Notes under the pieces: model-generated
Database searches by the model: none
Told to the model about the DNA's origin: nothing
Seen by the model: the letters and a program-made list of their open reading frames with translations, nothing else
DNA from: Actinomycetota bacterium
GTDB taxonomy: Bacteria > Actinomycetota > Coriobacteriia > Anaerosomatales > JAUXNU01
Length of the DNA: 64,000 bases
Assembly: GCA_030682655.1 (NCBI GenBank)
Contig: JAUXNU010000127.1
Coordinates: 14,597 to 78,596 of the forward strand
Direction of reading: 5' to 3'
Program-made: the position numbers and the translations under genes
In this document: positions 186-38,811 of the stretch, piece after piece
Layout of the letters: each line of letters starts with the position of its first letter
How positions within the stretch are numbered: position 1 is the first letter of the stretch

Positions 186-1256
186 ATGCGAGATGTGAAC
201 GAATTGCTGCGTGTCGTGATGGAGAGGGGTGGGTCGGACCTCCATATCACCGTGGGCGTCCCGCCAATGATCCGGCTCAACGGCAGGCTTATGCCGATAG
301 AAGGCGAGCCGTGCCTGACGCCCGACATGACGCGTGAGGCCGTGTTCTCGATCATGAGCCAGGATCGGCGAGCGGCGCTCGAGCAGAATCTCGAACACGA
401 CTTCGCATACTCCATTCCAGGTGAGGCGCGCTTCCGAGTCAACGCGTACTTCCAGCGCGGGAGTCTCGGGGCGGCGTTCCGTCTCATCCCTGTGGAGATT
501 CGCACGATCGCAGACCTTGGTCTTCCTGCCGTTCTCGAAGACCTGGCGATGAAGCCTCGTGGTTTCGTGCTGGTCACAGGACCTACAGGCTGCGGGAAGT
601 CCACGACACTGGCGGCGATGATTGACCATATCAACCACAACAGGGAACAACACATCATTACCATCGAGGATCCGATAGAGTACCTTCACGTGCACGACCG
701 TTCCGTGATCAATCAGCGTGAGGTCGGTTCAGACACGCAGTCGTTCGCCCGCGCGCTCAAGCACATTCTCCGCCAGGATCCCGACGTGATCCTCATCGGC
801 GAGATGCGCGATCTCGAGACAGTCTCTGCGGCATTGACCGCTGCCGAGACCGGGCATCTGGTGTTTGCAACCCTGCATACGCAGGATGCAGTGCAGACGG
901 TCGATCGAATCATCGACGTATTCCCGCCTCACCAGCAGCAGCAGGTCCGCGTCCAGCTGTCGGGTGTGCTGCAGGGGGTCGTAAGTCAGCAGCTCTTGCC
1001 GACCATCGACGGGCGGGGGAGGGTCGTCGCGTGCGAGGTGCTCATTCCTACACCCGCAGTGAGGAACCTCATTCGCGAGGCGAAGACCCATATGATCCAG
1101 ACGGCGATGCAGACGGGTACTTCGCACGGAATGGTAACGATGGACCATGCACTGGCCGATATGTACAGACGAGGTATGATTACGCTCGAGACCGCGATGC
1201 AGCGCGCCGTGGATCAGAACGATCTCAAGTCGCTGCTCTCGCAGACGGGCGGATAG
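186..1256 (+). CDS. pilT: Twitching-motility (retraction) ATPase PilT
   Basis: 356 aa. Walker A GPTGCGKST, Walker B/Asp box ILIGEMRD, His box ATLHT, and the PilT-type N-terminus LLRVVMERGGSDLHITVG. Confidence 0.9.
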   Translation: MRDVNELLRVVMERGGSDLHITVGVPPMIRLNGRLMPIEGEPCLTPDMTREAVFSIMSQDRRAALEQNLEHDFAYSIPGEARFRVNAYFQRGSLGAAFRLIPVEIRTIADLGLPAVLEDLAMKPRGFVLVTGPTGCGKSTTLAAMIDHINHNREQHIITIEDPIEYLHVHDRSVINQREVGSDTQSFARALKHILRQDPDVILIGEMRDLETVSAALTAAETGHLVFATLHTQDAVQTVDRIIDVFPPHQQQQVRVQLSGVLQGVVSQQLLPTIDGRGRVVACEVLIPTPAVRNLIREAKTHMIQTAMQTGTSHGMVTMDHALADMYRRGMITLETAMQRAVDQNDLKSLLSQTGG

Positions 1257-1280: not shown

Positions 1281-2492
1281 ATGCCGACCTTCAACTACTC
1301 GGTCCGTGACAAAGCCGGTAAGATAGTCAAGGGAACTCTGGACGGCGACAATAGCGAGGCTGTCGGCGCGAAACTGCGTCAGATGGGCTACATCATCCTT
1401 GAGCTGGACCAGCAGGGCGGAATCGCCGCGCTGAACCAGATCACCTTTGGAACCGGCGTCAACCCCAAGGACGTCTCGATCTTCTCGCGCCAGTTTGCGA
1501 CGATGATCAATGCGGGCCTCTCGCTCACGAAGTGCCTCTCGATCCTCGCGCAGCAGACGGAGAGCAAAGGTCTGGCCGTCGTCATCAACCAGGTGGCCAA
1601 GGACGTAGAAGCCGGGCAGTCACTCTCTGACTCGCTGGCCAAACACCCAAAGGTGTTCCCGCCGATCTTCATCAATATGGTGCGCGCGGGCGAGACCGGC
1701 GGTGTTCTCGACGAAGTGCTCATGCGGCTTGCCGACCACTTCGAGAACGAGCTGGCGTTGAAGGCCAAGATAAAGTCCGCGATGACCTATCCGATTGCGA
1801 TGGGTGCTCTCGTGCTGATAATCCTCGTGGCGATGATGATCTTCGTCGTGCCGACGTTCGAGAAGATGTTCGCGGACATGGGAGGGGAGCTGCCCGCGAT
1901 CACCCAGTTGCTCGTGAACATCTCGAACTACGTTGCCGGGTGGGGTGGGGTCATCACCGCTGTGGTTGCAGTAGCGGTCAACTTCCTGTTCAAGTTCTGG
2001 AAGGGCACGAACAGTGGGAAGCTGATCTGGGACAAGACCCGCTTGAGTGCCCCAGTGTTCGGCACGCTGGTGCGGAAGATCGCTCTCGCGCGCTTCACGC
2101 GGACATTCGGCACGCTCGTTTCCGCCGGCGTGCCGATTCTCTCGGCGCTCGACATCGTTGCTGATACCGCAGGCAATGAAGTCGTCGCTCTCGCCGTGAA
2201 GAGAGCCCGCTCCGCGATCAAGGAAGGCGAGACTATAGCCAAGCCTCTTTCGGAGTCGAGCGTCTTTCCGTCCATGCTCGTACAGATGATCGCGGTCGGC
2301 GAGGAGACCGGTGCTTTGGACGCCATGCTCAACAAGATCGCGGACTTCTATGACGAGGAGGTGGCAACAGCCGTCGACGGTCTCACGTCCCTCATCGAGC
2401 CCCTGATGATGGCGACCCTCGGGCTCGTTGTCGGTGGCATGGTCGTCGCGCTCTACATGCCGATGTTCACTGTCATCACTCTCGTGGAGTAG
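1281..2492 (+). CDS. pilC: Type IV pilus platform protein PilC (GspF family)
   Basis: 403 aa. Duplicated GspF-type domains (FSRQFATMINAGLSL... and FTRTFGTLVSAGVPIL...) and three hydrophobic segments. GGAGAGG RBS upstream. Confidence 0.9.
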   Translation: MPTFNYSVRDKAGKIVKGTLDGDNSEAVGAKLRQMGYIILELDQQGGIAALNQITFGTGVNPKDVSIFSRQFATMINAGLSLTKCLSILAQQTESKGLAVVINQVAKDVEAGQSLSDSLAKHPKVFPPIFINMVRAGETGGVLDEVLMRLADHFENELALKAKIKSAMTYPIAMGALVLIILVAMMIFVVPTFEKMFADMGGELPAITQLLVNISNYVAGWGGVITAVVAVAVNFLFKFWKGTNSGKLIWDKTRLSAPVFGTLVRKIALARFTRTFGTLVSAGVPILSALDIVADTAGNEVVALAVKRARSAIKEGETIAKPLSESSVFPSMLVQMIAVGEETGALDAMLNKIADFYDEEVATAVDGLTSLIEPLMMATLGLVVGGMVVALYMPMFTVITLVE

Positions 2493-3232: not shown

Positions 3233-4057
3233 ATGAACGCAGCCTACTTCACAGCACTCGCGCTCTTCGGCCTTGCATTCGGCAGCTTCGCCAACGTCGT
3301 CATCTGGCGTTTTCCCCGTGGCGAATCGCTGTCCGTTCCCGGTTCACATTGCCCTGCGTGCGGCCATCCCGTGCGCTGGTACGACAACATCCCCCTGGTG
3401 TCGTGGGGCGTTCTCAGGGCTCGTTGCCGGGACTGTGGATTCCGCATCTCCTTCCGATATCCGCTCGTGGAGCTCACGTCGGCAGTTCTCTGGGTGCTCG
3501 CCGCAGTGCGGTTCGGATTCACCCTCAGGACGGTTGCGTGCGTTGTCCTGTTCTACTTCCTGCTTCTGCTCACGTTCATCGACATCGACACGATGCGTCT
3601 GCCGAACCTGCTGGTGGGGGCGCTCGCCATCACGGGAGTGGTGTTCGTGGCGGCCTCAGCCGTGTCGCACACCGCGATCGCCCCGCTGCTCGGGACGAGT
3701 TCCGGTTCCTCGGCACGACCGATTGTCGTGGCTTTGATCGGCGTGGCGCTCGGGGCAGGGCCGAGTCTGGGCATCGCGCTTGTCTACGAGGTCGTTCGAA
3801 AGCGCCAGGGTTTCGGCATGGGCGACGTGAAGCTCCTGGCCACGCTGGGTATCTACCTAGGGCCATACGCGTTGATGACTCTGGTCATAGGCTCGTTCAT
3901 CGGTGCAGTGTGGGGTGTAGGCGCCAGCGTAGGGAGCGGTGAGGGTGCATCGACCAAGATACCTTTCGGTCCGTTCTTGGCGGCTGGCGCAGTACTGACG
4001 GTTATGTTCGGACCCTCGATGTGGGTTTGGTACATCTCGATAGCTGGACTAGCATGA
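3233..4057 (+). CDS. pilD: Prepilin peptidase / N-methyltransferase PilD (A24 family)
   Basis: 274 aa. CPACGH...CRDCG zinc-type motif, catalytic Asp contexts FIDIDTMRLP and GMGDVKLL, multiple TM segments. Confidence 0.9.
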   Translation: MNAAYFTALALFGLAFGSFANVVIWRFPRGESLSVPGSHCPACGHPVRWYDNIPLVSWGVLRARCRDCGFRISFRYPLVELTSAVLWVLAAVRFGFTLRTVACVVLFYFLLLLTFIDIDTMRLPNLLVGALAITGVVFVAASAVSHTAIAPLLGTSSGSSARPIVVALIGVALGAGPSLGIALVYEVVRKRQGFGMGDVKLLATLGIYLGPYALMTLVIGSFIGAVWGVGASVGSGEGASTKIPFGPFLAAGAVLTVMFGPSMWVWYISIAGLA

Positions 4058-4208
4058 TGCACGGGAATGAGTTCGGGACTATGGTCGAGTGAGCCTCGTG
4101 CCCGCGCGACTCGTGAGCATCAAGTCATGCGCCACGGGTGCCGATAATGCATGTGGATACGTGTGCCGGTTGGCGCACGCCAGAGCAGCATATAGGGGTG
4201 TGTGAGAA

Positions 4209-5705
4209 ATGAAGAGCCTGCGCTTTGGAGCGAGTACTCCCCGTCGAGACGACGATGGTTTCAGCGTTCTCGAGGTTGTGCTCGCTGCGTTCATCATGTT
4301 CTTCGCGCTGACGGCGGTGCTTGGGCTGGTTGGCACGAGCACGCGCATGAGCCTCAGCGCGAAGCAGCGTACGGCGATGGTCAACGCGGTGAACAGCCAT
4401 TTCGAGTGGGTTCGGTCGCTAGACTTCGAGAAGATCGCCAGCACATCTGAGGGTGGCGATATCCTTCCCGTCAAGACGATCACCGTCGACGGATTCACAG
4501 TGACGATCACGACTACCATCAGCGAGGGCACGGGAAACACAAAGGAAGTCCGGGTAGCGGCTGAAGCGGCCGCGCCGGGGTACCGAAGCGTGAGGATGAC
4601 GAGTTTCGCTGCGATTCGCAACAGCGAGGCAATCGTTGTCGGCACCGAAGACAGCCCGCTTGAGATCGACTTCGGCACTCGAACGCCGGTAGCGAACACA
4701 ATCGTATACGAGTCATATGTCATGGGTGGTGCGGACCTGATCATCGACGCGGACGCAGAGACGACTGAACCTGACGGTGTCGTATCCGAACTGGAGTTCA
4801 GCTGTTTGAATCAGCCTCTTCGCAGCGGCTCGACACTGAGTTCTCCGGTGGCCGCGTGGACACCCGGAACGCCCACAGTATCGCAGTCGTTCAAGTGGGA
4901 CACAGAGCAAGTCAAGAGTGTTGATGGACTGACCGTTGCGGCAATCGCTGACGGCTGGCGTGATGTCTACATCATCGCGAGAGACAATCAAGGTCGCGAG
5001 GAGAGGAAGTCTCGACGCCTCTATGTTGACAACAAGAATCCGGACCTTCCGGGGGTTCCGATCGCACAGGTGAACAACAACTCCGAGACGCGCGTCTCGT
5101 GGGCAGCAGCAAAGGACGGCACGCATGATGCATGGTCCTACGAGGTCTTGCTTGAGCAGATCAATGGTTCGGGCAGTCTGGTGAGCGTGGGTACCACCGC
5201 GTGTCCGGATCCCGTCTACATTCACAACGGCTCCACGTTCAGCAGGTACTGCGTTTCCGTGAGGGCCCTGTCGCCGCGGAATCTCGCCAGCGCATACCAG
5301 CCGATCGCAACACCGTACGTGACACGGCCCACCCTCACCGGTACCAGCACGTGTGTCTACACCGGAAGCAACGAATCTCGCAAGTCCACGACGTCCGTCT
5401 CGCTCACGTCCGCCTCACCGACCTTCGCTGCCAGTGGTGTCGCCTACGATGTCTACCGGAAGAACATGAACGATGCGACCCCGGCGTGGGTGTTCGTCAA
5501 GACATCTGACACTAGCGACTTCACCGATTCGGTCGTGAAGACCGTTGGCGCGAATGGTGTAGCCGATCCGTACCTGTACAAGGTGCAGGTCCGCTACTCG
5601 GCTACCGTCTATGCTCCGCTTGCGAACCAGTCCATCTGGTCGGACGAGATAGGTCCGACGACCGTGCTTGAGGGCACCCTCGCGATGGGACACGTCGCAT
5701 GGTAG
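4209..5705 (+). CDS. Large prepilin-leader (minor pilin-like) protein with Ig/FN3-like C-terminal modules
   Basis: 498 aa. N-terminus RRDDDG|FSVLEVVLAAFIMFFALTAVLGLVG matches the prepilin cleavage/methylation motif. The rest is beta-rich, with FN3-like patterns (TRVSWAAA...WSYEVLL...YCVSVRALSP; VAYDVYRKN...YLYKVQVRYS). Confidence 0.65.
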   Translation: MKSLRFGASTPRRDDDGFSVLEVVLAAFIMFFALTAVLGLVGTSTRMSLSAKQRTAMVNAVNSHFEWVRSLDFEKIASTSEGGDILPVKTITVDGFTVTITTTISEGTGNTKEVRVAAEAAAPGYRSVRMTSFAAIRNSEAIVVGTEDSPLEIDFGTRTPVANTIVYESYVMGGADLIIDADAETTEPDGVVSELEFSCLNQPLRSGSTLSSPVAAWTPGTPTVSQSFKWDTEQVKSVDGLTVAAIADGWRDVYIIARDNQGREERKSRRLYVDNKNPDLPGVPIAQVNNNSETRVSWAAAKDGTHDAWSYEVLLEQINGSGSLVSVGTTACPDPVYIHNGSTFSRYCVSVRALSPRNLASAYQPIATPYVTRPTLTGTSTCVYTGSNESRKSTTSVSLTSASPTFAASGVAYDVYRKNMNDATPAWVFVKTSDTSDFTDSVVKTVGANGVADPYLYKVQVRYSATVYAPLANQSIWSDEIGPTTVLEGTLAMGHVAW

Positions 5706-6256
5706 GACGGCTGACAGATGACAGGGGTTTCTCGCTGACCGAGCTCATCACGGTCACGGTTCTCCTGGGCGTGGTGCTCGCCATCTCCTACGGCGCGATG
5801 ATTGCGGTATACCGCGGCACCGACGTGAGCGATCGGCAGGCGACGATTTCGAGAGAGGCTGCTGCGCCGCTTGGAGCTATGGAAGAGATCATCTCTCAGG
5901 CGATCAGCGTGGACACGGCAAACGCCTACACGATGACCGTGCTGACTGATCGTGACAACAACAAAGTGATCGAGCGGCACATCTTCACGGCGAATGCCGA
6001 CGGCACGCTGACTCAGGTGACCTGGCTCACGAATGCCTCACGGGTAAACACGACTCGCATCGGGGATGTCACCTGGTCTCGAAACAACCGCAATGTCGCG
6101 AGAACGCAGCCACTCTTCTACTACTGGGATGGACAGAAGCCGCGTGCGAGGACCACTGATCCGGCACAAGTCGGGTACGTAGACATGAACCTCGTGGTGG
6201 AGGTCGACGGGCGGGAGTACCGGGACACGCGCTCGGTGCTGTTGCGAAACCGCTAG
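5699..6256 (+). CDS. Minor pilin / pseudopilin
   Basis: 185 aa. N-terminus MVGRLTDDRG|FSLTELITVTVLLGVVLAI (G/F/E+5 motif). The start overlaps the upstream stop (ATGGTAG). Confidence 0.7.
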   Translation: MVGRLTDDRGFSLTELITVTVLLGVVLAISYGAMIAVYRGTDVSDRQATISREAAAPLGAMEEIISQAISVDTANAYTMTVLTDRDNNKVIERHIFTANADGTLTQVTWLTNASRVNTTRIGDVTWSRNNRNVARTQPLFYYWDGQKPRARTTDPAQVGYVDMNLVVEVDGREYRDTRSVLLRNR

Positions 6257-6280: not shown

Positions 6281-7732
6281 GTGTTCACGAGGATACGCAA
6301 GGAAGATGGCATTGCGATGGTGGCCGTCGTCGGTGTTGTCGCGCTCATATCGGCTGTCGCCATGGGCGGATTCATCCTGTCCCGCCAGATCCTCCACGAG
6401 TCCGTGCGGGTAGAGAACGAGAGCAAGGCCTTCCAGGTGGCGCAGAGCGGGATGGACCGTGAGCTTGCCACATTCACTCCCGACAAGCTGACAGATGGCT
6501 TCCTTGACAAGACCGGCAGGACCGAGGACGGTACCTACACCATCAGCGTGGCACCTGCATCGGGTACGCCGAATCCCCTGTTCGGCGAGTACGTCCTTAC
6601 TTCGTGGGGAGAGGCACGGGGTGTCTCGGAGTCCGTGAGCATGACCTTCTTCTATATCGACCTCTGGAACATCAACATCGGTTCGGGAGAGAACGCTTCA
6701 ATCGGTGGAGGTCGGGGCTTCAACGGCAACGCTACCATAACTGGCCCCTTGTACATCCGTGGAAACATGGAGTGGGGTTCGAGCGCGCGATACGAAGGAG
6801 GGCCGCTGTTTATCAAGGATGGATACCTCGATATCAGCGGGGCCGGAACCCTTGGCAAGCTGAAGCCGATCAAGTGCTACATCACCAACGGAGTGCGGGG
6901 CAAGGTGGGCAATCTGTACCCCGACGGCCCAATATCCTCGTCTGTTCCCGACATCGAGTTGCCGTGGGTCGACGCAGCGTACATGTCGAGCAAGTACGAC
7001 CTTGCGAAGGCCGAGTCGGCTGACCAACTTATGGGCTCGGAGTCGCGCGGAATCGTCAACACCACCGAAGTCACGACTCTCGGTAACCCATCCACATACG
7101 GTGGCACGAAGGCGACTTCTTCGCCGGCCGCCACGTCTGCATTCTACAAGTACATCGGCGCGTCGACCGGCCCCAAGGCACTTGGAATGGGAACCAACAA
7201 CTTGACCATCGGCGCCACGTCGTTCGGTCGCTGGGAAGGCAACGGGTACCCGGTCGCCTCCGGCCTGCATGACGACTTCGCCTTCGACTACAACACAGGC
7301 ACACTCTACGTCGAGGGTACGGTGTTCATCGACGGAGTCCTCACACTCGGTGATAGGGTGACGAAGTACGTCGGCAACGGCACGCTTGTGGTCAACAACA
7401 ACGTGTTCATCCTGGGCGATCCGCGACCCAAAGACGTGCTGTCCAAGGAGCAGGCACTCGGAATCGTCACGCCGGGCGATGTGAGGATCGGCGAGTCGAA
7501 CAACACCGCCCACTACATCGGCGGCATCTTTGCCAACGGCGTCGTCGGGCTCTATGGCGCGCAGGGGTCGGACCCCACTCGGGCAGAGGGTGCCATCCTT
7601 TGCGGCTCCATCTACGGAGACAAGCCGAACCTGAACATCCACATGAATTCAGAGCTCTCCGAGGCCGGCGTCGAGAGCCTGCCGGGTTCCGGTGGCGGCA
7701 TCGTGTACCAGGGCACCTGGACGCGCAACTAG
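6281..7732 (+). CDS. PilX-N-like pilus-associated protein with Gly/Asn-rich beta-helix-like body
   Basis: 483 aa. GTG start 8 nt after GGAGG. N-terminus IRKEDG|IAMVAVVGVVALISAVAMGG is pilin-like but lacks Glu+5, as in PilX_N proteins. Repetitive G/N-rich strands are present (GGGRGFNGNATITGPLYIRGN..., GNGTLVVNNNVFILGD...). Confidence 0.55.
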   Translation: MFTRIRKEDGIAMVAVVGVVALISAVAMGGFILSRQILHESVRVENESKAFQVAQSGMDRELATFTPDKLTDGFLDKTGRTEDGTYTISVAPASGTPNPLFGEYVLTSWGEARGVSESVSMTFFYIDLWNINIGSGENASIGGGRGFNGNATITGPLYIRGNMEWGSSARYEGGPLFIKDGYLDISGAGTLGKLKPIKCYITNGVRGKVGNLYPDGPISSSVPDIELPWVDAAYMSSKYDLAKAESADQLMGSESRGIVNTTEVTTLGNPSTYGGTKATSSPAATSAFYKYIGASTGPKALGMGTNNLTIGATSFGRWEGNGYPVASGLHDDFAFDYNTGTLYVEGTVFIDGVLTLGDRVTKYVGNGTLVVNNNVFILGDPRPKDVLSKEQALGIVTPGDVRIGESNNTAHYIGGIFANGVVGLYGAQGSDPTRAEGAILCGSIYGDKPNLNIHMNSELSEAGVESLPGSGGGIVYQGTWTRN

Positions 7733-7854: not shown

Positions 7855-8985
7855 GTGGGCGCCTTCTCCCTCGGCACCCAGCCGATGCCCATCGGTCTCG
7901 ATATCGGGACCGACCACATTCGCGCAGCCCAACTGAAGCCATCCGGCTCGGGGTTCGTGCTCGGCGCGTATGGGCGCGTCAATCTTCCTATGGGCGCGGT
8001 CGTAGAAGGCGAAGTCGTCGATACAGAAGCGGTTTCCTCGGCGATGAAGGAACTGTGGCGCCGGCACGGTCTTCACGGCAAGGACGTCTCGATCGGCGTG
8101 TCCAACCAGAAGGTCGTCGTGCGGCTGATCGATCTGCCATACATGGAGCGCGCTGAACTTGAGGGCGCGATCCAGTACCAGGCGCAGGACTACATACCGA
8201 TTCCTATCGAGGACGCGATCCTCGACTTCCAGATAATCGGCGACTACATGACGCCGGCCGACGAGCACATGATGGAAGTGCTGCTTGTCGCCGCGCAGAA
8301 GGACATGATCGGCAATGCTGTGCTTGCCGTCGAGCAGGCGGGCCTGAAACTCGCTCAGATCGATGTGACCTCGTTTGCGATCGTTCGTTCGATCCTTGGC
8401 ATGGGTGGCACGGTCCTGCCCGGTGAGGACGAAGCGATCGGCGAAGCGATCGGCGTCATTCACATCTCGTCCGGACTGACCAACATCGTGGTCGTTGAGC
8501 GCGAAGTCCCGCGCTTCACCCGCGTGTCGTCGATCGCCGGCAACCAGTTCACCCAGGCGATCGCCAACGTACTGAACCTCACTTTCGACGAAGCCGAGGA
8601 ACTGAAGATTCGTGTAGGGCTTCCTGACATCGATTCCGCGGCGGCCCAGGCCGTTGTGCCCGATGTCGACCAGCAGACGTATCAGGTCGCCCAGGACGCT
8701 CTCGAGCGCGAGGTCAACAAGTTCATCGCCGAGGTCCGGCGGTCCCTCGACTACTACCTCACCCAGGCGACACAGGTGCGCACGATCCGCAAGATCTACA
8801 TGACGGGCAGCGGTGCGCAGCTCTCCAACATGGCCGGCTACATCGAGAAGGGCCTCCAGGCGGAGGTCGTGCTTGCGGATCCGCTCCAGTGGGTTCAGGT
8901 GCCCGGCGGTCTTCAGGACCTCGTCCTGGCCGATCGAATGGGCTCCGCGCCGGTCGTCGGCCTTGCAATGGGGGGTGCGGTCTAG
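7855..8985 (+). CDS. pilM: Type IV pilus assembly protein PilM (actin-like ATPase fold)
   Basis: 376 aa. IGLDIGTDHIRAAQL phosphate-1-like motif with PilM/FtsA-like architecture. Immediately followed by pilN. Confidence 0.9.
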   Translation: MGAFSLGTQPMPIGLDIGTDHIRAAQLKPSGSGFVLGAYGRVNLPMGAVVEGEVVDTEAVSSAMKELWRRHGLHGKDVSIGVSNQKVVVRLIDLPYMERAELEGAIQYQAQDYIPIPIEDAILDFQIIGDYMTPADEHMMEVLLVAAQKDMIGNAVLAVEQAGLKLAQIDVTSFAIVRSILGMGGTVLPGEDEAIGEAIGVIHISSGLTNIVVVEREVPRFTRVSSIAGNQFTQAIANVLNLTFDEAEELKIRVGLPDIDSAAAQAVVPDVDQQTYQVAQDALEREVNKFIAEVRRSLDYYLTQATQVRTIRKIYMTGSGAQLSNMAGYIEKGLQAEVVLADPLQWVQVPGGLQDLVLADRMGSAPVVGLAMGGAV

Positions 8986-9621
8986 ATGATCCGCATCAAC
9001 CTTCTTCCTCGGGAGATCATCGAGAAGCGCAAGTTCGAGCGCCTGATCACCTTCGTCGCTCTTGGCGGGCTCGTCGTGTTTCTTGTTGTCGCGGCGGTGT
9101 GGGGTGTCATGGCGTGGCAGGTGGCTGGGCGCAACTCGCTGCTTCAGGCCGAGCAGGACACCGCTGTGACGTTGAGGAACAGCGCGGAGGCTCTGAAGGT
9201 CTTCGAGGACAAAGAGGGTGCTCTGGAGTCGCGGCTATCTATCGCCCGCGAAGCTCTCGCAAAGAGGGCCGACTGGGGGAGAATCGTCAACGAATTCTCG
9301 CTCGTGCTGCCGTCGGATGTGTGGTTGGACTCACTGTCAGGAGACGAGGAAAGTGGCCTGACTATCGATTGCAGCGCTCTTGATAGCGTGACGGATGTAC
9401 CGGATTTCGGGCACAAGGCAGTGGCCAAGACACTAGTGCGACTCGCCGATCTTGAACTGGTGGATGAAGTGTGGCTCGTGTCTTCCACGAAGAGCGCCTA
9501 CGAAGATACGGAAGACTATGTGATCACGTTCTCGATAACGACCGGAGTGGTGAGACCGGCGGCGCCGGACACGACAACGAACTCGAGCGAACCTGCCCCG
9601 CCAAGTCAGTCCGCTCAGTGA
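8986..9621 (+). CDS. pilN: Type IV pilus assembly protein PilN
   Basis: 211 aa. The canonical PilN start MIRINLLPREIIEKRKFERL is followed by one TM segment. The ATG abuts the pilM stop. Confidence 0.85.
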   Translation: MIRINLLPREIIEKRKFERLITFVALGGLVVFLVVAAVWGVMAWQVAGRNSLLQAEQDTAVTLRNSAEALKVFEDKEGALESRLSIAREALAKRADWGRIVNEFSLVLPSDVWLDSLSGDEESGLTIDCSALDSVTDVPDFGHKAVAKTLVRLADLELVDEVWLVSSTKSAYEDTEDYVITFSITTGVVRPAAPDTTTNSSEPAPPSQSAQ

Positions 9622-9638: not shown

Positions 9639-10259
9639 ATGAAACTCACTACACAACAGAAGCTCATCATCGCGATTCTCCTGATCGTCCTGGTTGCGGT
9701 CGCCGCGGTCTTCCTTCTCATCGTGCCGCAGTTTGGTGCCCTCGGCGATCTTGACGACCAGATAGCTCAGGCTCAGCAGGACCAGAAGGACGCTTCGCTT
9801 CTCCTGGAGACTCGCAAGGAGAAGAAGCTGCGTGCCAGCGAGACCGATGTGAAGCTGATGCGCCTCGCTAACGAGTTGCCGGAGACACCGGAACTGCCGG
9901 CGATGATCATCGAACTGCAGGACGTAGTGAACGAGTCCGGTCTCGAGTTCGCGTCACTGACTCCGGGGGAACCCACCCAAAGGCCGAGTGATGCGGCCGC
10001 TGAGCCGGAGTACTGGGCGATTCCAGTCTCTCTGACGGTTAGAGGTACCTGGCAGGACACCGTGGACGTCATACAGCGACTCCGCCGACTGACACGACAG
10101 ATGAGAATCGTCAACTTCTCGACATCGAGGTACGAGCCCGACACCGATCTCTTGCCGAGCCGCACATTCGTGGAGACCTCGATCCAGCTCGAGGCATACT
10201 CTCTAGCTACCAAACAGGAGGGGCCGGACAAGACCGTACCTCCTGCCCCGGGCCAGTGA
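9639..10259 (+). CDS. pilO: Type IV pilus assembly protein PilO
   Basis: 206 aa. N-terminal TM, coiled-coil (LDDQIAQAQQDQKDASLLLE) and a ferredoxin-like C-terminal pattern, in the position after pilN. Confidence 0.75.
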   Translation: MKLTTQQKLIIAILLIVLVAVAAVFLLIVPQFGALGDLDDQIAQAQQDQKDASLLLETRKEKKLRASETDVKLMRLANELPETPELPAMIIELQDVVNESGLEFASLTPGEPTQRPSDAAAEPEYWAIPVSLTVRGTWQDTVDVIQRLRRLTRQMRIVNFSTSRYEPDTDLLPSRTFVETSIQLEAYSLATKQEGPDKTVPPAPGQ

Positions 10260-10995: not shown

Positions 10996-12147
10996 ATGCG
11001 CTACGTCACCTCGGGTGAGTCACACGGCAGGGTTCTCACGGCAGTCGTCACCCGGGTACCCGCCGGTATTCCTCTGACCCAGAAGGCGATTGATGACGAT
11101 CTTGCCCGTCGGCAGGTAGGCTACGGGCGGGGTGGGCGGATGCGAATCGAGTCAGATCGTGGCTCCATTGTCTCCGGTGTGCGATTCGGCAGGACGATCG
11201 GGAGTCCTGTGACGATCGCCATCTCAAATCGCGACTGGGACAACTGGACAGACGTGATGTCTGTCTTTGGCGAGCCGGTCGACTCGGCCCGGGTGACCGC
11301 ACCGCGTCCCGGGCATGCGGATCTTGCAGGGGTTCAGAAGACGGGCTCTCGAGACATTCGCGACATCCTTGAGAGGGCCAGTGCTCGTGAGACCGCGGCC
11401 CGCGTTGCGGCCGGTTCGGTCGCCCGAGCATTCCTGACGCAAATGGGCGTAGGGGTGGAGTCGTTCGTCCAGTCCATCGGCGATGTGGCGATGGACGATG
11501 TCGAAGACCCAGCTGCAATCGATGCCGCACTTGTGGATGCCAGCGACGTGCGTTGCCCCGACGAGGCGACTGCGAAACGGATGCGTGTGGCGATCGACGA
11601 AGCCCGTGAGGCGGGCGAGAGCCTCGGAGGCGTCTTCTGCGTGACGGCGACGGGTCTCGTCCCCGGACTAGGTTCGTACGCCGAAGCGTCCCGCCGTCTC
11701 GATGCAGGACTCGCCGCGGCCGTGTGCTCGATTCCCGCGATCAAGGGCGTTGAGTTCGGTGACGGGTTTCGGGCTGCCACGCGCCCGGGTTCCGGCGTTC
11801 ATGACGAGATCCTGTTCGACGAAGGTCGGGGCTTCTACCGCAAGACCAATCATGCAGGTGGCGTCGAGGGCGGCATGACGAACGGGGAGCCGCTGGTGAT
11901 TCGCGCAGCAATGAAGCCCATTCCGACACTCATGAAGCCGCTGGCCAGTGTGGATATGGACACTCATGAGCCAGTCGATGCTTCGAAGGAACGTTCAGAT
12001 GTCTGTGCTGTCCCGGCGGCGGCCGTCGTTGCCGAGGCAGACGTGTCACTCGTTCTTGCCCGCGCCTACATCGAGAAGTTCGGCGGGGACTGTCTGGACG
12101 ACACGATCTCCGCTGTTGCCGCATACCGTGCGAGGCTGCAGCCGTGA
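10996..12147 (+). CDS. aroC: Chorismate synthase
   Basis: 383 aa. MRYVTSGESHG N-terminus and conserved GGRMRIESD and RPGHADL motifs. Confidence 0.95.
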   Translation: MRYVTSGESHGRVLTAVVTRVPAGIPLTQKAIDDDLARRQVGYGRGGRMRIESDRGSIVSGVRFGRTIGSPVTIAISNRDWDNWTDVMSVFGEPVDSARVTAPRPGHADLAGVQKTGSRDIRDILERASARETAARVAAGSVARAFLTQMGVGVESFVQSIGDVAMDDVEDPAAIDAALVDASDVRCPDEATAKRMRVAIDEAREAGESLGGVFCVTATGLVPGLGSYAEASRRLDAGLAAAVCSIPAIKGVEFGDGFRAATRPGSGVHDEILFDEGRGFYRKTNHAGGVEGGMTNGEPLVIRAAMKPIPTLMKPLASVDMDTHEPVDASKERSDVCAVPAAAVVAEADVSLVLARAYIEKFGGDCLDDTISAVAAYRARLQP

Positions 12148-12662
12148 GTCACGTGTTCCTGGTCGGCTTCATGGGCGCCGGCAAGTCGACCGTCGGTCAT
12201 CTGCTCGCCAAGGACCTGGGACACCCCTTCATCGACCTCGACGAAACCATCGAGCAGGACGAAGGCCGTTCGGTGACCCAGATATTCGCCGAGGACGGGG
12301 AGACGGGGTTTCGCTCGTTGGAGACGCGGGCCCTGCGCGCGCTAGGAGACGCGCCTCCATCGGTGGTGGCGTGTGGGGGAGGGGTGATCCTCGTCGACGA
12401 GAACAGGGCGCTGTTGGCCTGCGAAGGGCGTGTGGTCTACCTCGTTGTCACTCCCGGAGAGGCGCTTGCCCGCATTGGCGGAACCGAATCGCGGCCGCTC
12501 CTGGCAGGAGCCGGTGGTGTTGTGGCCGCAACCTCACTTCTGACAGCGAGGGAGTCGCTGTACCGGGCGTCTGCCGACATCGCCGTGGATACCACCGGCA
12601 AGGAACCGTCGACCGTCGCGAGCGAGGTCCTGGCGTTGCTGAAAGGGGTCGAGGTCGAGTGA
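12144..12662 (+). CDS. aroK: Shikimate kinase
   Basis: 172 aa. P-loop GFMGAGKSTVG. GTGA start/stop overlap with aroC. Confidence 0.9.
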   Translation: MSHVFLVGFMGAGKSTVGHLLAKDLGHPFIDLDETIEQDEGRSVTQIFAEDGETGFRSLETRALRALGDAPPSVVACGGGVILVDENRALLACEGRVVYLVVTPGEALARIGGTESRPLLAGAGGVVAATSLLTARESLYRASADIAVDTTGKEPSTVASEVLALLKGVEVE

Positions 12663-13759
12663 GCGATGCGGTCAGGGTCCAGGTGATGACATCGTCAGGC
12701 CTCTATCCGGTGCACATCGGCTCCGGGATCGTGGACTTGTGCGGCTCTCTCGTGAGGGAGCACTCGACTGCTCGTACGGCGGCGGTTGTCACTGACTCGA
12801 ACGTTCAAGCACTTCTCGGAGTGCGGGTCGTCGCTTCGCTTGAGGCTGCGCAGTTCCGCGTGGTTCAGGTCACGGTCGAACCGGGCGAGGCCAGCAAGAG
12901 TTGGGCGCGCGCAGGTGAGGTGCTCGAGGCGCTGGCTGCGCACGGACTCGACCGGGGAGACATCGTGGTGGCGCTTGGCGGTGGGGTGATTGGCGACCTC
13001 GCGGGGTTCTGCGCGGCGGTGTACATGAGAGGCATTTCCTACGCGCAGATCCCCACGACACTTCTGGCGCAGGTGGACTCATCTGTCGGTGGCAAGACCG
13101 CAGTGGACCTGGCGGCAGGCAAGAACCTCGCGGGCGCGTTCCTTCAACCGCGTGCGGTGGTCGCGGATACCGATTCGCCTCGAACCCTGTTGGAGCTGGA
13201 GTGGCGGAGCGGACTCGCCGAGATCGCGAAGTCGGCGGTACTTGACGGCGAGGAGTTCCTGTCGTGGCTTGAGACGCACGCCCAGGGTCTCGTGGACCGT
13301 GATCCCGAGACGGTCAAGCACGCAATCCAGGCATCAGTCGAGTTCAAGGCGCGCATCGTGGCTGGAGACGAGCGAGAATGCGGCGTGAGGGAGTGCTTGA
13401 ACCTGGGGCACACTCTCGGACATGCCATCGAGAAGGTGGCCGGGTATGGCGCGGTCGGCCACGGACTTGCGGTTGCCGAAGGGATGCGCTTCTCGGCGCG
13501 GCTGGCCGCACGCATCGAAGCAGTGTCGCCTGAATTCGTGAGCAGACAGGAAGCGCTTCTAGATGCACTCGGTCTCGTTGAGCTCTCCTCGGTGTACGAT
13601 AGCGAGATGATCCGTACGGCGATGTCTTCGGACAAGAAGGTGCGCAACGGCGCCGTGCGTTTCGTGCTTGCCACGAGCCCCGGAGAGCATGTGGTACGCG
13701 GGGTCGACGGCGGTGTGCTTCAGGAGGAGCTGCGCGAGTGGATGCGCGAGAGGGGTTGA
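12659..13759 (+). CDS. aroB: 3-dehydroquinate synthase
   Basis: C-terminal ~366 aa of the 11948-13759 [14 protein letters not shown] and [20 protein letters not shown] motifs. Start placed at GTG 12659 (GTGA overlap with aroK); ATG 12686 is the alternative. Confidence 0.88.
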
Positions 13760-13763
13760 GATC

Positions 13764-14207
13764 GTGATACGCGTGCTCGTCATCAACGGACCGAACCTGA
13801 ATCTCCTTGGAACGAGGGAGCCGGATATCTACGGCTCGACGACTCTCGCCCAAATCGAGGCGCTGGTGACCCAACAGGCTGCCGATGAGGGCGTGGAGGT
13901 CGGATTCTTGCAGTCGAACCACGAGGGCGCAATCATCGACGCATTGCAGCAGGCACCTGGAGACTACGACGCTGTCGTGATGAATCCGGGTGCCTTCACT
14001 CACTACTCGTACGCGCTGCGGGACGCGGTTGCGGGAGCCGAGCTGCCCGTGATCGAGGTGCACCTGAGCAACATCGCGGCCCGCGAGGAGTTTCGTGCGT
14101 CGAGTGTCATCGCACCGGCATGCATCGGTCAGATATCGGGATTCGGCGTCGGCTCGTACCTGCTCGGCGTTCGCGCCGCCGCTCAGAGCGTTCGGGGCGA
14201 CGCATGA
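13764..14207 (+). CDS. aroQ: Type II 3-dehydroquinate dehydratase
   Basis: [21 protein letters not shown] and [12 protein letters not shown] motifs. GTG start at 13764, just after the aroB stop. Confidence 0.9.
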
Positions 14208-26956: not shown

Positions 26957-27829
26957 ATGTACAACCTTCGCTACCATATCGCGTCGCTCGTGGCGGTCTT
27001 CCTTGCAATGGCGATCGGCCTGCTCCTTGGCACTATCGTCGTCGAGAGAGGTACTTTCGACAGGCAGCGCGATTCGATCGTGGAGAGCCTTCAGGATGAG
27101 TTTCGCACGCTTGCCGATGAGAACGATGTGCTTCGCACGGACAACGAGCACCTCGACGCTTTCGTAGGTGACCTGGTCCCCGCTCTCACGGGCGATGTCC
27201 TTGCGGGCAAGAGGTTCCTGGTGATCGCGTCGACCGGTAGAACCGACGGGCTCGGGGCTGTGACCCAGGCCATCGGGCAGGCCGGCGGAGAGGTGATAGT
27301 GGCGACGGAGAGCGAAGCCGGGATGGCACTTGCTGATCCCGCGGTCTCTCAGGTAGCGACACCGGTGGTGGGGGATCTGACGGGTGACGATCTGGTTTCG
27401 GCAGTCTCGAAGACGCTTGCTGCCGAGTGGGCGACTCCGGGCGTCGATCGCCCTCTCACAGATGCGCTGAGCGAAGCAGGTGCGATTCGCTTCGATCCCG
27501 CACTGCGGGAAGACGTGTTTGTGGATGGTGTGATCGCGATGGCTGCGTGGGACGGTGTACCAGATGACCTCGCGCTGAGGATAGCCGAGGAGCTTTCCCG
27601 GGTGGGCCGGATCAGCATCGGTGCGGAGGCCGGGACGAATCCGACGGGCGTCGCTGCTGCGAGTGCAGCGCAAGGTCTGTCTGCCGTCGACAACGCCAGC
27701 AGCGCCGCCGGGCGGCTGTCTGTGGTGTGGCTGCTCGCCGGACGGGCAAAGGGCTACTTCGGAACCGGGGATGCCGCTGACGCGCCATGGCCGACGATGG
27801 AGACGAAGACGGGCTCGCCGAAGGACTAG
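26957..27829 (+). CDS. MctB-like (DUF3186 / copper transporter family) membrane-anchored protein
   Basis: 290 aa. MYNLRYHIASLVAVFLAMAIGLLLG N-terminal anchor plus coiled-coil (SLQDEFRTLADENDVLRTDNEHL). Located after steA, as Rv1698 is in Mycobacterium. Confidence 0.6.
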   Translation: MYNLRYHIASLVAVFLAMAIGLLLGTIVVERGTFDRQRDSIVESLQDEFRTLADENDVLRTDNEHLDAFVGDLVPALTGDVLAGKRFLVIASTGRTDGLGAVTQAIGQAGGEVIVATESEAGMALADPAVSQVATPVVGDLTGDDLVSAVSKTLAAEWATPGVDRPLTDALSEAGAIRFDPALREDVFVDGVIAMAAWDGVPDDLALRIAEELSRVGRISIGAEAGTNPTGVAAASAAQGLSAVDNASSAAGRLSVVWLLAGRAKGYFGTGDAADAPWPTMETKTGSPKD

Positions 27830-28518
27830 GCGGGGGTGCGACGACGCTCGAACGCAAGCCGCGCCAACGCCCGTCCGACATGGACGAACTGCTGTCCCCT
27901 GTGGGCAAATCCCGTCAGATCGCGACCGGTTGCTGCGTGACTCATCGTGGTCGGTATCTCGATGACACGCATTCCCGCGCGCAGCGCGCGGACGGTCAGG
28001 GCGACTTCGACCCCGTATCCGAATGCGAAAGGCGTCACGTTCGCGAGACAACGGGCCGACAGCGCTCTTTGACCTGAGAGCGGGGCCTGTGCCACGAACC
28101 CGCCACCCATTCGAGCGATCCCCCAACGTGCGAGACCCTTGACGAGACCGACACCGGCTTTGCCCGCAGGGCGCGGGAATGCGGCAATCACCAAGTCCGC
28201 GCGTCCTTCGGAGACCGGGTCGAGAAGAAGCTGGCCCTGCTCCGCAGACTGGCCCAGGTCCCCGTCGAGAAGCAGGAGCACCTCGATCTCCTCGGCCAGA
28301 TGGGCGATGCCGGTGTCGAGGGCCGCGCCTTTGCCCACGTTGTCGGGCAGGGCGAGCACTTCGGCCCCCGCAGCCCGTGCGACTTCGGCCGTCGAGTCGG
28401 TGGAGCCGTCGTCGACGACCAGGACACGGTCGACACCGCGGATGGAGCGTGCGGCGATCACGGTCGCGCCGATGAGATCGGCTTCGTTGAAGGCGGGGAT
28501 GAGTGCGACGACGCTCAT
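27826..28518 (-). CDS. Family 2 glycosyltransferase (small, DPM1/GtrB-like)
   Basis: 230 aa from the internal ATG at 28518. ALIPAFNEADLIGATV, VVDDGSTDST, and DxD-like LLDGDL. ATGA overlap with the murJ stop. Its stop overlaps the mctB-like stop in a shared CTAG. Confidence 0.8.
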   Translation of the reverse strand: MSVVALIPAFNEADLIGATVIAARSIRGVDRVLVVDDGSTDSTAEVARAAGAEVLALPDNVGKGAALDTGIAHLAEEIEVLLLLDGDLGQSAEQGQLLLDPVSEGRADLVIAAFPRPAGKAGVGLVKGLARWGIARMGGGFVAQAPLSGQRALSARCLANVTPFAFGYGVEVALTVRALRAGMRVIEIPTTMSHAATGRDLTGFAHRGQQFVHVGRALARLAFERRRTPA

Positions 28519-30080
28519 CGAGATCGCCCTGTCAGTCCCACGATGCCTCTCCGGATGAGCGCCACGCCCTCTGGGATCTCGGGTACGCGCAGGAGGGCTG
28601 CGATGCCGTAGGTGACGCCAAGACCGAGCGAGCCGGCGATGGCGAGCTGGACGAGGAATCCGGCGCGCGCGTCGGAAAGACCGCGAGTCGCATACAGCAG
28701 GCCGACGACGACCGCCGCCCCAGCCGTTGATGCGACAAGCATCCGGGCCAGAATGGAGACGACGCCGCGCATGTCGAACGCGCCGATGCGGCGGCGAAGG
28801 ACAAACAGGAGGGCGACGAGGCTTATGGACGCGAACACCGCATCGGAGATAGGGATGCCCCGTAGTCCAAGCCCCTTCCAGCTCCCGATGCCGACTGTGA
28901 GGGTCGCGTACAGCGAAACCTGGACGACGGTCGCCGCGCCGTTGACGAGCATCGGCGTCTTGGTGTCCTGCATCGAGTAGAAGGTCCGGATGAGGAACAT
29001 GAACATTGCGAAGAAGAACAGCGCCACGCCCCACCAGACGAGTACTTCGGCGACGACCGGTATGTCCTCGGCAGTGAAACGACCGGCGCGATACAGGGTG
29101 GTCAGTGGTGTGGCCAGCGTGACAAGCATGGCCGCCATCGGCAGCATGAGGACGCCGGTGATGCGGAGTCCCCTGCCGAAGGTCAGCTTGAAACTCGACC
29201 AGTCGTTGCGTCCGGCCTGGTCGGAGAGCTCGGTGAAGATCGCCGTTGCCAGAGCCACGGCGAAGATGCCGTATGGAAGCTGGTAGAACATCCACGCGTA
29301 CATCAGTGTCGCCGGTCCTTCGGGGGAGACCTCGAAGGCGTAGGCGTTGCGGAAGGACACGGCGATCAGGTTCGTGACGACGTAGAGCACCGTGGGAACT
29401 GCCATCTTGCCGAGCCGGCGCATTCCCGGGTGCTTGAAATCGATGCGCAAGGTGTACGCAGGTTTGAGTCTGAGCAGGCTCGGGAGCTGCACGGCGAACA
29501 TGGCGAGCACTCCGAGAGACGTGCCGACTGCCAATCCGATTCGGGCCAGCTCAGGATTCGTCTCGCGGAAGGGAACGTAGAAGCCCAGCAGAGTGACGAT
29601 CACAACAAGGTTGTTGAACACGGGGCCGATAGTCGGCCAGAAGTAGCGCCTCTGCGAGTTGAGCACGGCGCTGATGATCGATCCTGCGCCGTAGAACACC
29701 ACCTGGACCGCGAAGAATCGGAAGAAGTACGTGGCGAGCGCCGCGTCGTCCGGACTGATACGAAATGTCTGGGTCCTGACGAACGCTTCGGCATACACCG
29801 TGCCAAGGACGGCTACCACGCTCAGGATGAGCGTGGTCAGGTTGAAGAGCGAGCTCGCGAAACGCCAGGCGTCTTCGCGGCTCTTGTCTCCCCACCACTC
29901 CAGAAAGATCGGTATGAAGAGCGACGAGATGATGCCGCCTGCGACGAGCTCGTAGATCATGTTCGGGATGTTGTTCGCGACGCCGTACGATGCAGCGAGC
30001 GCGGTCACTCCGAGCGCGTATGCCGTCGCCCAGGTGCGCACAAACCCCGTGACCCGGGACAGCGTCGTAGATATGGACAT
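28515..30080 (-). CDS. murJ: MurJ/MviN-family (MOP superfamily) lipid-linked glycan flippase
   Basis: 521 aa. LSRVTGFVRTWATAYALG...ANNIPNMIYELVAGG N-terminal MurJ signature and ~14 hydrophobic segments. Confidence 0.85.
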   Translation of the reverse strand: MSISTTLSRVTGFVRTWATAYALGVTALAASYGVANNIPNMIYELVAGGIISSLFIPIFLEWWGDKSREDAWRFASSLFNLTTLILSVVAVLGTVYAEAFVRTQTFRISPDDAALATYFFRFFAVQVVFYGAGSIISAVLNSQRRYFWPTIGPVFNNLVVIVTLLGFYVPFRETNPELARIGLAVGTSLGVLAMFAVQLPSLLRLKPAYTLRIDFKHPGMRRLGKMAVPTVLYVVTNLIAVSFRNAYAFEVSPEGPATLMYAWMFYQLPYGIFAVALATAIFTELSDQAGRNDWSSFKLTFGRGLRITGVLMLPMAAMLVTLATPLTTLYRAGRFTAEDIPVVAEVLVWWGVALFFFAMFMFLIRTFYSMQDTKTPMLVNGAATVVQVSLYATLTVGIGSWKGLGLRGIPISDAVFASISLVALLFVLRRRIGAFDMRGVVSILARMLVASTAGAAVVVGLLYATRGLSDARAGFLVQLAIAGSLGLGVTYGIAALLRVPEIPEGVALIRRGIVGLTGRSR

Positions 30081-30346
30081 TATCGCGGTGGAGCGCGCGA
30101 TAGTGGGCTGGGATATGGTCCTGCCTCCGTTCGGTCAGTCCGCTTGGACCCCTCCGGACCGCGTCACACACAATTGTATCCGAGCATGTGGCGCAGCGGC
30201 TGGGCGCCTTGACGGCGTCGATGACTCGTAGCCGTGTCGTGACCATGTGCCATACCGGCTTCGCGCGGCATTCCGCTATACTTGCGGGTGGGCGCCTCTA
30301 GCCCGGTCCCGTGCAGTCGCACGCAGGGCCATGTCCCCAGATATGA

Positions 30347-30372
30347 TCGTCGCACGTGTACACGTGCGACGA
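30347..30372. promoter_or_regulatory. 26-bp perfect palindrome (putative operator or 5'-UTR hairpin) abutting the RBS of the 771-aa membrane protein gene
   Basis: TCGTCGCACGTGT|ACACGTGCGACGA was checked base by base: 13+13 nt, no mismatch. The right arm overlaps the GAGGAG RBS (30371-30376), and the ATG is at 30382. Confidence 0.9.
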
Positions 30373-30381
30373 GGAGTGTGG

Positions 30382-32697: not shown

Positions 32698-33659
32698 CAG
32701 ATTGGACGGCGGAGTCGGTACGCCTCGTCGCCGCGCTTCTGGCCGGATGGGGTCTGCCGGCCCTTGGGATGCACATGTTTGTGCCGACGCTCGAGACATC
32801 CGGACCGCATGTGCGGAACTACCGGGACGCGGATGTGTTCGTCGGACTCGGTACGGTCTGGGTGTTCTGGGTGATCGCGATGGTCGGGCTGAATACCGTA
32901 GCTGTCTCAGGGGTCTTCTTCGGCAGAGAGCTCGCCGCTCCGGTCGTATTCCAGGCCATCCCCGTAGTCGTAGCGGCGTTCGTTTTCGGACTGATCGATG
33001 ACGCCATGGGCGGTTCCGCAGAGAAGGGGTTTGGCGGTCACGTGAGGGCGCTCCTCAGAGGCAGGCTGACGACCGGCGGGCTGAAGCTCCTTGGCATCGG
33101 GGCGGCCTCGCTCGGCGTCGCGCTTGTCCTTGAGCTGTCGCGCGCGGGTGAACCCGGGGCGACTCCCGTGTGGCGGACCGCCGTCGCGGTAGTAGCCGCG
33201 ACCGGAATCATCGCGCTGAGTGCGAACCTCGTGAACCTCCTGGATGTGCGTCCGGCGCGGGCCATCAAGGCGCATACCGCACTGAGTCTCATCGTGGTAT
33301 GCGTGGCAGTGGCACGCGCGATCCAGCTGGACTTCTCCGCGGGCGCTTCTCTCTTCGAGGGTGTTGGTCTGTTCGTCATGATGATCGGGCCGATGGTGGC
33401 CGTGTGGCGCTGGGACGCCAGCGGCCGCGGGATGCTCGGGGATGCTGGAGCCAACGCTGCGGGCGCGCTGGCAGGCTTCATGCTGGCCGCGGTTCTGCCT
33501 CTGCCGGGCCAGGTGATCGCGGCGGCGGCACTCCTTGGCATGAACCTACTCTCGGAGCGGGTCTCGTTCTCGGCCGTGATCGAGCACAACCGCGCGCTGG
33601 CATGGGTGGACGGGCTCGGCAGGATGCCCGAGGTGACCGAAAATCGCCCGGCTTCGTGA
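32694..33659 (+). CDS. MraY/WecA-like (GT4 polyprenyl-phosphate sugar-1-P transferase family) membrane protein with a divergent catalytic loop
   Basis: 321 aa. GTGA overlap with the upstream stop. GLIDDAMG and MLGDAGANAAG resemble the MraY DD and GDxGS loops, but the NxxNxxDGxDGL loop reads NLVNLLDVRPARA. About 9-10 TM segments. Confidence 0.6.
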   Translation: MTDWTAESVRLVAALLAGWGLPALGMHMFVPTLETSGPHVRNYRDADVFVGLGTVWVFWVIAMVGLNTVAVSGVFFGRELAAPVVFQAIPVVVAAFVFGLIDDAMGGSAEKGFGGHVRALLRGRLTTGGLKLLGIGAASLGVALVLELSRAGEPGATPVWRTAVAVVAATGIIALSANLVNLLDVRPARAIKAHTALSLIVVCVAVARAIQLDFSAGASLFEGVGLFVMMIGPMVAVWRWDASGRGMLGDAGANAAGALAGFMLAAVLPLPGQVIAAAALLGMNLLSERVSFSAVIEHNRALAWVDGLGRMPEVTENRPAS

Positions 33660-37564: not shown

Positions 37565-37686
37565 AGTGATGGGGCCTGCTGCATAAAGCACGGTGTCTGC
37601 GTTACACTGGCCTGAGTTTCTTGCCCGCTGGTGTTCGATCCCAGCCTGGTGTGGTCAGCGGGTCCATCACAGACAAGGAGATTGCC

Positions 37687-38802: not shown

Positions 38803-38811
38803 GGAGCGCAC

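Follow-up and report, generated by a model that had tools for sequence, protein, structure and literature searches.

A candidate modular minor pilin with a predicted immunoglobulin-like arm in a conserved type IV pilus operon of Coriobacteriia

Introduction

Modular type IV pilins are widespread. An InterPro survey found more than 1,200 of them in 264 architectures, and fibronectin type III (FN3; IPR003961) ranks within the top 15 of their extra domains by frequency; as the survey noted, modules without database signatures are under-counted (Raynaud et al. 2021, PMC8179133). The worked examples are PilB, with a vWA module, and PilC, with a lectin module, of Streptococcus sanguinis (PMC8179133; Shahin et al. 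2023, PMC9934059), where the I-like minor pilin PilA forms a tip complex with both (PMC9934059). Here we describe a candidate member of this class, the 498-amino-acid (aa) product of an open reading frame (ORF498) in a 64,000-nucleotide (nt) stretch of an Actinomycetota genome (class Coriobacteriia; contig JAUXNU010000127.1, positions 14,597 to 78,596; referred to as the window), which is chromosomal DNA with a G+C content of ~60 to 65%.

Two described systems are relevant to the genes that accompany ORF498. In Thermus thermophilus, the GspK-like pilin ComZ, into which a solenoid is inserted, binds both DNA and the GspI-like PilA2 of the same locus and has been put forward as the DNA receptor at the tip (Salleh et al. 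2019, PMC6561018). In cyanobacteria, a beta-solenoid PilX strictly co-occurs with PilV subfamilies, and the solenoid has been proposed as a tip plug that replaces PilY1 (preprint 10.64898/2026.02.12.705559); the text of that preprint does not mention "Ig-like," "fibronectin," or "modular."

The type IV pili of the Actinomycetota, including Coriobacteriia, are essentially unstudied, and a literature search on type IV pili and minor pilins in Coriobacteriia returned nothing specific to this group. The Coriobacteriia are Gram positive.

Results

ORF498 belongs to a complete type IV pilus operon that fills the first 11 kb of the window, all on the plus strand (Table 1). A hypothetical protein from an Actinomycetota metagenome-assembled genome has the identical sequence, and in the window an AGGGG Shine-Dalgarno-like stretch lies ~12 nt upstream of the ATG of ORF498. 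A word-indexed search recovered 28 relatives, and a family profile compared with 1.84 billion cluster representatives (clustered at 50% identity) retrieved 4,953 proteins at an E value of ≤0.001; at ≤1e-30 it retrieved 221 cluster representatives, nearly all 480 to 560 aa long and aligned end to end, for a family of at least 221 clusters. We also compared 23 loci, all from Coriobacteriia or other Actinomycetota and nearly all metagenome assembled; a few duplicate one contig, and one comes from a genome that is not metagenome assembled (Coriobacteriaceae bacterium EMTCatB1). Because the family is large, its members are nearly all full length, and the same neighbors are found in 23 of 23 loci, these comparisons indicate that ORF498 is a genuine gene rather than an ORF that arose by chance in GC-rich DNA. 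The 221-aa ORF opposite ORF498 (4079 to 4744, minus strand) is one of many long antisense ORFs that overlap genuine genes across the window; such ORFs are typical of GC-rich DNA and are not genes.

The N terminus of the protein (MKSLRFGASTPRRDDDG|FSVLEVVLAAF) follows the class III signal-peptide pattern, RRDDDG|FSVLEVVLAAFIMFFALTAVLGL, in which a short charged leader ends in glycine and is followed by ~20 hydrophobic residues with glutamate at position +5. Among 150 relatives the glycine at −1 (Gly17) is 92% conserved and the glutamate at +5 (Glu22) 100% conserved. The initial annotation of this gene, made from the sequence alone, had noted a G|F-x-x-x-E pattern common to ORF498, the major pilin (RKDEG|FTLVELMVV), and the next ORF (TDDRG|FSLTELITV), as well as a 7-nt overlap with that next prepilin gene; the pattern is shared as described, and the overlap is ATGGTAG at 5699 to 5705, but the predicted mature protein is 481 aa long rather than the ~470 aa given there. 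The ORF498 query itself had no match at an E value of ≤1 to the N_methyl (PF07963) or IV_pilin_GFxxxE (TIGR02532) models, but PF07963 matches 10 of 27 family members (best E value, 1.9e-5). In the annotation of some database homologs, the first residue is the one just past the glycine, and these are probably miscalled starts.

An AlphaFold2 model built on a 27-sequence alignment has a mean predicted local distance difference test (pLDDT) score of 88 and consists of a disordered leader, a pilin helix, a four-stranded sheet, a low-confidence linker (residues 142 to 147), and three beta-sandwiches, which we call D2, D3, and D4. The initial annotation had named two structural tests of its proposal, a pilin-like helix at the N terminus and domains of the beta-sandwich type, and this high-confidence model contains both. 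In the first module, a long helix is packed on an antiparallel sheet (strands at residues 88 to 93, 96 to 106, 111 to 121, and 128 to 137; pLDDT, ~80 to 90), which is the pilin fold as predicted. Both stretches that had been singled out as FN3-like fall inside confidently predicted beta-sandwiches (~280 to 355 in D3 and ~375 to 498 in D4), and D2 (~150 to 273) is a third, beyond those named at first. The best Foldseek matches of the model in the PDB are tandem immunoglobulin (Ig)/FN3 arrays in contactins, titin, fibronectin, and cytokine receptors (E value, ~5e-9). According to these predictions, ORF498 has the parts by which a modular pilin is defined: a pilin module, a short linker, and folded modules that are not specific to pili.

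The sandwiches are far less visible to sequence models. Scans of ORF498 with Pfam and NCBIfam gave no usable family, and no Ig-like module reached a Pfam model; the fibronectin type III model (PF00041) matched neither ORF498 nor its 27 relatives at an E value of ≤1, and a phmmer search of the full protein against the PDB gave a single weak match, to an FN3 domain of IFNAR1 (E value, 0.37). The likeness to FN3 is one of predicted fold and not of sequence at the Pfam level. For D2, positions ~240 to 315 of the family profile match up to 73 repeats in giant proteins, where the Pfam domains are Big_13 and Big_7, and these cross-matches indicate that D2 is related to bacterial Ig repeats; the direct Pfam match to Big_13 (PF19077) is confined to 1 of 27 family members and is weak (E value, 0.14). 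Residues W230, D248, G249, D259, D274, N275, and P278 in the D2 region are each at least 91% conserved, and the domain ends in a conserved D-N-x-x-P motif; W298, D303, Y311, R346, and Y347 are conserved in D3. A D4 profile gave weak Ig-V and cytokine-receptor FN3 matches in the PDB (E value, ≥0.02) and no carbohydrate-binding or other informative family. D2 is consistently acidic, the median net charge being −8 for D2 and +2 for D4, and per-domain net charge revealed no basic module of the kind that would suggest DNA binding. The Ig/FN3 domains of ORF498 are generic folds without a recognizable binding site or family.

To place the pilin module among minor pilins, we compared it with models of the I type (GspI/PilV/ComGE). 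The ORF498 query gave matches to ComGE (E value, 0.0075; 16 bits against a cutoff of 49) and XpsI (E value, 0.026; 14.5 against 150), and no score reached a family cutoff. At the family level, subthreshold matches of the pilin module were found to ComGE in 23 of 38 members, XpsI in 11, PilV in 10 (best E value, 6.8e-8), and HpsB in 11 (best E value, 2.2e-5). A search of the PDB with the pilin-module profile found no solved pilin, and hhalign against Escherichia coli K-12 GspG, GspH, GspI, and GspJ aligned the hydrophobic helix alone (E values, 0.0015 to 0.028; probability, ≤16%), so the I, J, H, and G classes are not separable in that way. In these profile comparisons the small I minor pilins (PilV/GspI/ComGE) come closest to the module, at scores below the family cutoffs. 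Gene order is of the same kind, with ORF498 followed by a J-like gene (ORF185) and a K/ComZ-like gene (ORF483) in 23 of 23 loci. I subunits (GspI, XcpV/EpsI, PilV, ComGE) and ORF498 both have a small helix plus a four-stranded sheet and a gene that stands ahead of J- and K-like genes; however, known I subunits are ~100 to 130 aa long without an extension, whereas ORF498 carries ~350 extra residues.

The two genes downstream encode the putative partners. ORF185 is a clear prepilin and looks GspJ-like in family-level matches: the GFxxxE model matches 12 of 12 relatives, gspJ and gspH 9 of 12 each, and type II secretion system protein J (PRK08808) 5 of 12 (best E value, 8.4e-6), and there is also a match to HpsC. 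ORF483 has no Pfam or NCBIfam match. Its AlphaFold2 model (pLDDT, 89; predicted template modeling score, 0.83) consists of an alpha1 helix (residues 9 to 64), a sheet (74 to 127), and a beta-solenoid. At an E value of ≤0.001, Foldseek retrieved only three PDB chains for this model, all of T. thermophilus ComZ (6qvi; E values, 7e-10 to 5e-9; 14 to 15% identity), and the next-best match had an E value of 0.57. In the ORF483 family, Gly-1 is present in 36 of 38 members, and position +5 is alanine, threonine, valine, or isoleucine in 38 of 38 and never glutamate; K-type subunits, which cap tip complexes, are characterized by the absence of Glu+5 (PMC9934059). Because ComZ is the sole significant match among solved structures and Glu+5 is never found, ORF483 is likely a K/PilX-type cap, and a ComZ/PilX-type beta-solenoid cap pilin is likely present in Coriobacteriia. 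Two ORF483 homologs were named PilX by JGI.

The C termini of the two large proteins share a feature. The last residue of ORF498, Trp498 (5700 to 5702), is tryptophan in 108 of 150 family members, and ORF483 ends in a conserved W-x-R in which W480 and R482 are invariant. We considered an outer-membrane-type C-terminal signal for the terminal tryptophan and ruled it out on the basis of the soluble sandwich fold, the lack of a secretin gene at the locus, and the Gram-positive nature of Coriobacteriia.

The gene order pilT-pilC-pilA-pilD-498-185-483-pilM-pilN-pilO-PilP-like-aroC holds in 23 of 23 loci wherever the sequence extends, and pilB lies upstream in syntenic loci. The pilT-like ATPase and PilC are 67 to 84% identical in most of the loci. 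Across 18 nonredundant loci, the mean pairwise distance is 0.26 for PilC, 0.30 for PilM, 0.54 for the ORF483 solenoid, and 0.55 for the ORF498 pilin module, and within ORF498 it climbs steadily toward the distal end, through 0.64 for D2 and 0.67 for D3 to 0.73 for D4, which diverges more than any other segment measured in the locus. With PilC and PilM distances regressed out, a mirror-tree comparison gave partial correlations of 0.68 between D2 and the ORF483 solenoid and 0.73 between D2 and its own pilin module, and of 0.05 and 0.32 between D4 and the pilin domain and solenoid of ORF483, respectively; these values are exploratory and weak in either direction, coming from 18 related loci with nonindependent pairs and near-saturated distances.

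The remaining pil genes are listed in Table 1. The mechanically called start of pilA, TTG at 2625, gives a 31-aa leader. With the ATG at 2694 (MRKFRKDEG|F), the leader is a typical one of 9 aa and the protein is 126 aa long, near the 113 to 123 aa of its homologs; this ATG is probably the true start. The PilP-like ORF after pilO is kept in all loci checked. We found no secretin gene and no H-type minor-pilin gene in the pil locus. The junction with aroC-aroK-aroB(-aroQ) is kept in nearly all of the 23 loci wherever the sequence reaches it.

Table 1. Genes of the pil locus and modules of ORF498, with positions in the window and the basis of each assignment
Feature	Position	Strand	Basis
pilT-like ATPase	186-1256	+	ORF; syntenic homologs with T2SSE/T2SSF Pfam domains in two loci (L001, L003)
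pilC, platform protein	1281-2492	+	ORF; syntenic homologs with T2SSE/T2SSF Pfam domains in two loci (L001, L003)
pilA, major pilin	2625/2694-3074	+	N_methyl PF07963, E = 1.5e-8; N-terminal matches to PilA_Myxo, ComGC, GspG
pilD, prepilin peptidase/N-methyltransferase	3233-4057	+	A24_N_bact, E = 9e-34; Peptidase_A24, E = 9e-13
ORF498	4209-5705	+	ATG 4209 to TAG 5703-5705; 498 aa
ORF498 leader peptide, aa 1-17, ending at Gly17	4209-4259	+	Conservation in 150 relatives; pLDDT <50, disordered
ORF498 pilin module, aa 18-140	4260-4628	+	AlphaFold2: alpha1 helix 20-70, four-stranded antiparallel sheet 88-137
ORF498 D2, aa ~150-277, acidic Ig-like beta-sandwich	4656-5039	+	AlphaFold2; family-profile cross-matches
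ORF498 D3, aa ~278-362, FN3-like beta-sandwich	5040-5294	+	AlphaFold2; Foldseek
ORF498 D4, aa ~363-498 plus stop codon, larger distal beta-sandwich	5295-5705	+	AlphaFold2
ORF185, 185-aa GspJ/PilW-like minor pilin	5699-6256	+	N_methyl, E = 1.2e-4
ORF483, 483-aa ComZ-like pilin	6281-7732	+	AlphaFold2 model and Foldseek against PDB
pilM	7855-8985	+	PilM_2, E = 3e-56
pilN	8986-9621	+	PilN, E = 0.0026
pilO	9639-10259	+	PilO, E = 1.3e-11
PilP-like ORF, 214 aa	10281-10925	+	pilP_fam TIGR03021, E = 1e-7; 33 bits, just under the cutoff of 34.65
aroC, aroK, aroB, aroQ	10996-14207	+	Adjoin the 3' end of the pil operon

Two further regions of the window drew our attention. At 30247 to 33659 (plus strand), an 816-aa protein that has an extracytoplasmic domain at its N terminus and a long multipass membrane region at its C terminus is encoded together with an overlapping 343-aa ORF; neither matches a Pfam or NCBIfam family, and they adjoin genes for MurJ (28515 to 30080, minus strand) and a family 2 glycosyltransferase (27826 to 29295, minus strand). 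At 36452 to 39717 (plus strand), a DUF3866 protein (E value, 5e-120), an alanine dehydrogenase, and a XerC/XerD-type tyrosine recombinase (Phage_integrase; E value, 3.5e-48) are encoded amid housekeeping genes, with no mobile-element signs around them beyond the recombinase.

Discussion

On balance, ORF498 is probably a modular minor type IV pilin of an I-J-K tip or priming complex, with an arm of three Ig domains. From the sequence features, conservation, synteny, and predicted folds, we infer a course of cleavage, complex formation, tip location, and possible ligand binding. PilD, encoded directly upstream, would cleave the protein after Gly17, leaving an I-like pilin module that a short flexible linker joins to a putative arm of a Big_13-like Ig domain, an FN3-like domain, and a larger Ig/FN3-like sandwich. 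Gene order and the folds of the neighbors suggest that its helix bundles in the membrane with ORF185 and ORF483; ORF483 would take the top position because it lacks Glu+5 and is bulky, with ORF498 and ORF185 beneath it and PilA polymerizing below the three. In the end this priming complex would occupy the tip of a retractile pilus on a monoderm, Coriobacteriia-type cell, where the Ig arm may project beside the beta-solenoid, with D2 probably close to the solenoid and the fast-evolving distal D4 as the most likely contact for an external ligand. The tip or priming role proposed in the initial annotation has gained ground, since pilD lies directly upstream and the downstream proteins look like J and K partners, but ORF498 itself is probably not the cap: it keeps Glu+5, which is missing from ORF483, the neighbor whose predicted fold is that of ComZ.

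The arm may bind a ligand, brace the solenoid, or do both. The rapid evolution of D4 and the flexible linker favor a ligand-facing end, but the fixed three-module architecture and the D2-solenoid correlation favor a structural role; an architecture that is constant throughout the family would suit a core structural subunit no less than a variable adhesin. The Ig modules could instead form a structural brace along the ORF483 solenoid, stabilizing or shielding it and maybe guiding a bulky tip through the thick wall, with a ligand such as DNA bound by the solenoid. We give this alternative some weight while regarding it as unlikely. The constant length as well as architecture of ORF498, its co-occurrence with ORF483 in every locus, and the exploratory finding that D2 tracks the solenoid about as well as it tracks its own pilin module are all consistent with a brace, as are the precedents of Thermus PilA2, whose extra subdomain was modeled in the ComZ hinge (PMC6561018), and of S. 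sanguinis PilA, an I-like pilin that stabilizes its partner (PMC9934059). However, the floppy linker suggests a free arm, and D4, the most divergent segment, is nearly uncoupled from the ORF483 pilin domain and weakly coupled to the solenoid, with the correlations weak either way. If DNA is a ligand, ORF483 would be a more likely receptor than ORF498. A more specific idea, doubtful and offered speculatively, is that in these Gram-positive Coriobacteriia an I-type pilin has gained a three-domain Ig arm and with it serves as the obligate partner of a ComZ-like cap, the two forming a two-part tip receptor (perhaps for DNA or another polymer) and a plug that replaces PilY1; if true, this would be a tip architecture without a description in any model system.

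The three proteins might also make up the tip of a short pseudopilus for the secretion of polysaccharide or protein, as in cyanobacterial Hps or type II secretion, rather than that of an adhesive surface pilus. The HpsB and XpsI/GspI matches of the pilin module and the GspJ, GspH, and HpsC matches of ORF185 point in this direction, and beta-solenoid PilX/HpsA proteins are part of the hps locus (preprint 10.64898/2026.02.12.705559). We nonetheless consider it quite improbable: a PilT-type ATPase, PilM/N/O, a PilA-type major pilin, and PilB upstream in syntenic loci make up a full retractile, type IVa-like set, and no secretion substrates or polysaccharide genes adjoin the locus, where the aro genes are found instead. 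That ORF498 is not processed as a pilin at all, its helix being the uncleaved anchor of a surface Ig-domain protein that merely sits in a pil locus, might be read from the query's failure to match the prepilin models and from the homologs annotated to start after the glycine, but it is highly implausible given those probably miscalled starts, the conservation of Gly-1 and the invariant Glu+5, the N_methyl matches of relatives, the predicted pilin fold, and the overlap with a bona fide prepilin gene.

As a modular pilin, ORF498 is an uncharacterized member of an already described class. Like PilB and PilC of S. sanguinis, it has an N-terminal pilin module, a short linker, non-pilus domains, a predicted tip location, and a monoderm pil locus; unlike the cataloged modular pilins, it carries a tandem of three beta-sandwiches, none of them recognized by a Pfam or NCBIfam model, and for that reason its family would be missing from an InterPro-based catalog. 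Its carrier module looks I type; in S. sanguinis, by contrast, the I-like pilin, PilA, carries no extra module. As in the Thermus PilA2-ComZ system (PDB 6qvi), an I-like pilin is encoded in one operon with a K-like beta-solenoid pilin, but PilA2 has a small inserted subdomain where ORF498 has three Ig modules, and Thermus is a diderm with a secretin, whereas the host group of ORF498 is monoderm. The type IVb proteins CofB and TcpB are likewise large minor pilins with C-terminal beta-rich domains on a linker, for which a role in starting assembly and a place at the tip have been proposed (PMC8179133, PMC6561018); they belong to a different pilus class and are single trimeric initiators with beta-repeat and beta-sandwich domains, and we liken them to ORF498 by description only. 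The cyanobacterial PilV/PilX priming complexes resemble the ORF498/ORF483 pairing, and the pilin module has its HpsB matches, but phylum and envelope are different. Two things set this family apart: its carrier looks like an I subunit, which is normally minimal, and the protein paired with it in this monoderm phylum is a ComZ-like cap.

ORF498 leaves the concept of how pili gain functions unchanged. It adds a modular pilin family that is invisible to domain databases and supports the published view that such proteins are under-counted. For the Coriobacteriia, the locus provides a complete and strictly conserved parts list that includes a putative three-protein tip set: an I-like pilin with an Ig arm, a J-like pilin, and a ComZ-like cap. 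Solenoid pilins of the ComZ type have been known from Thermus and, more recently, from cyanobacteria; the locus would also extend their range to a monoderm phylum.
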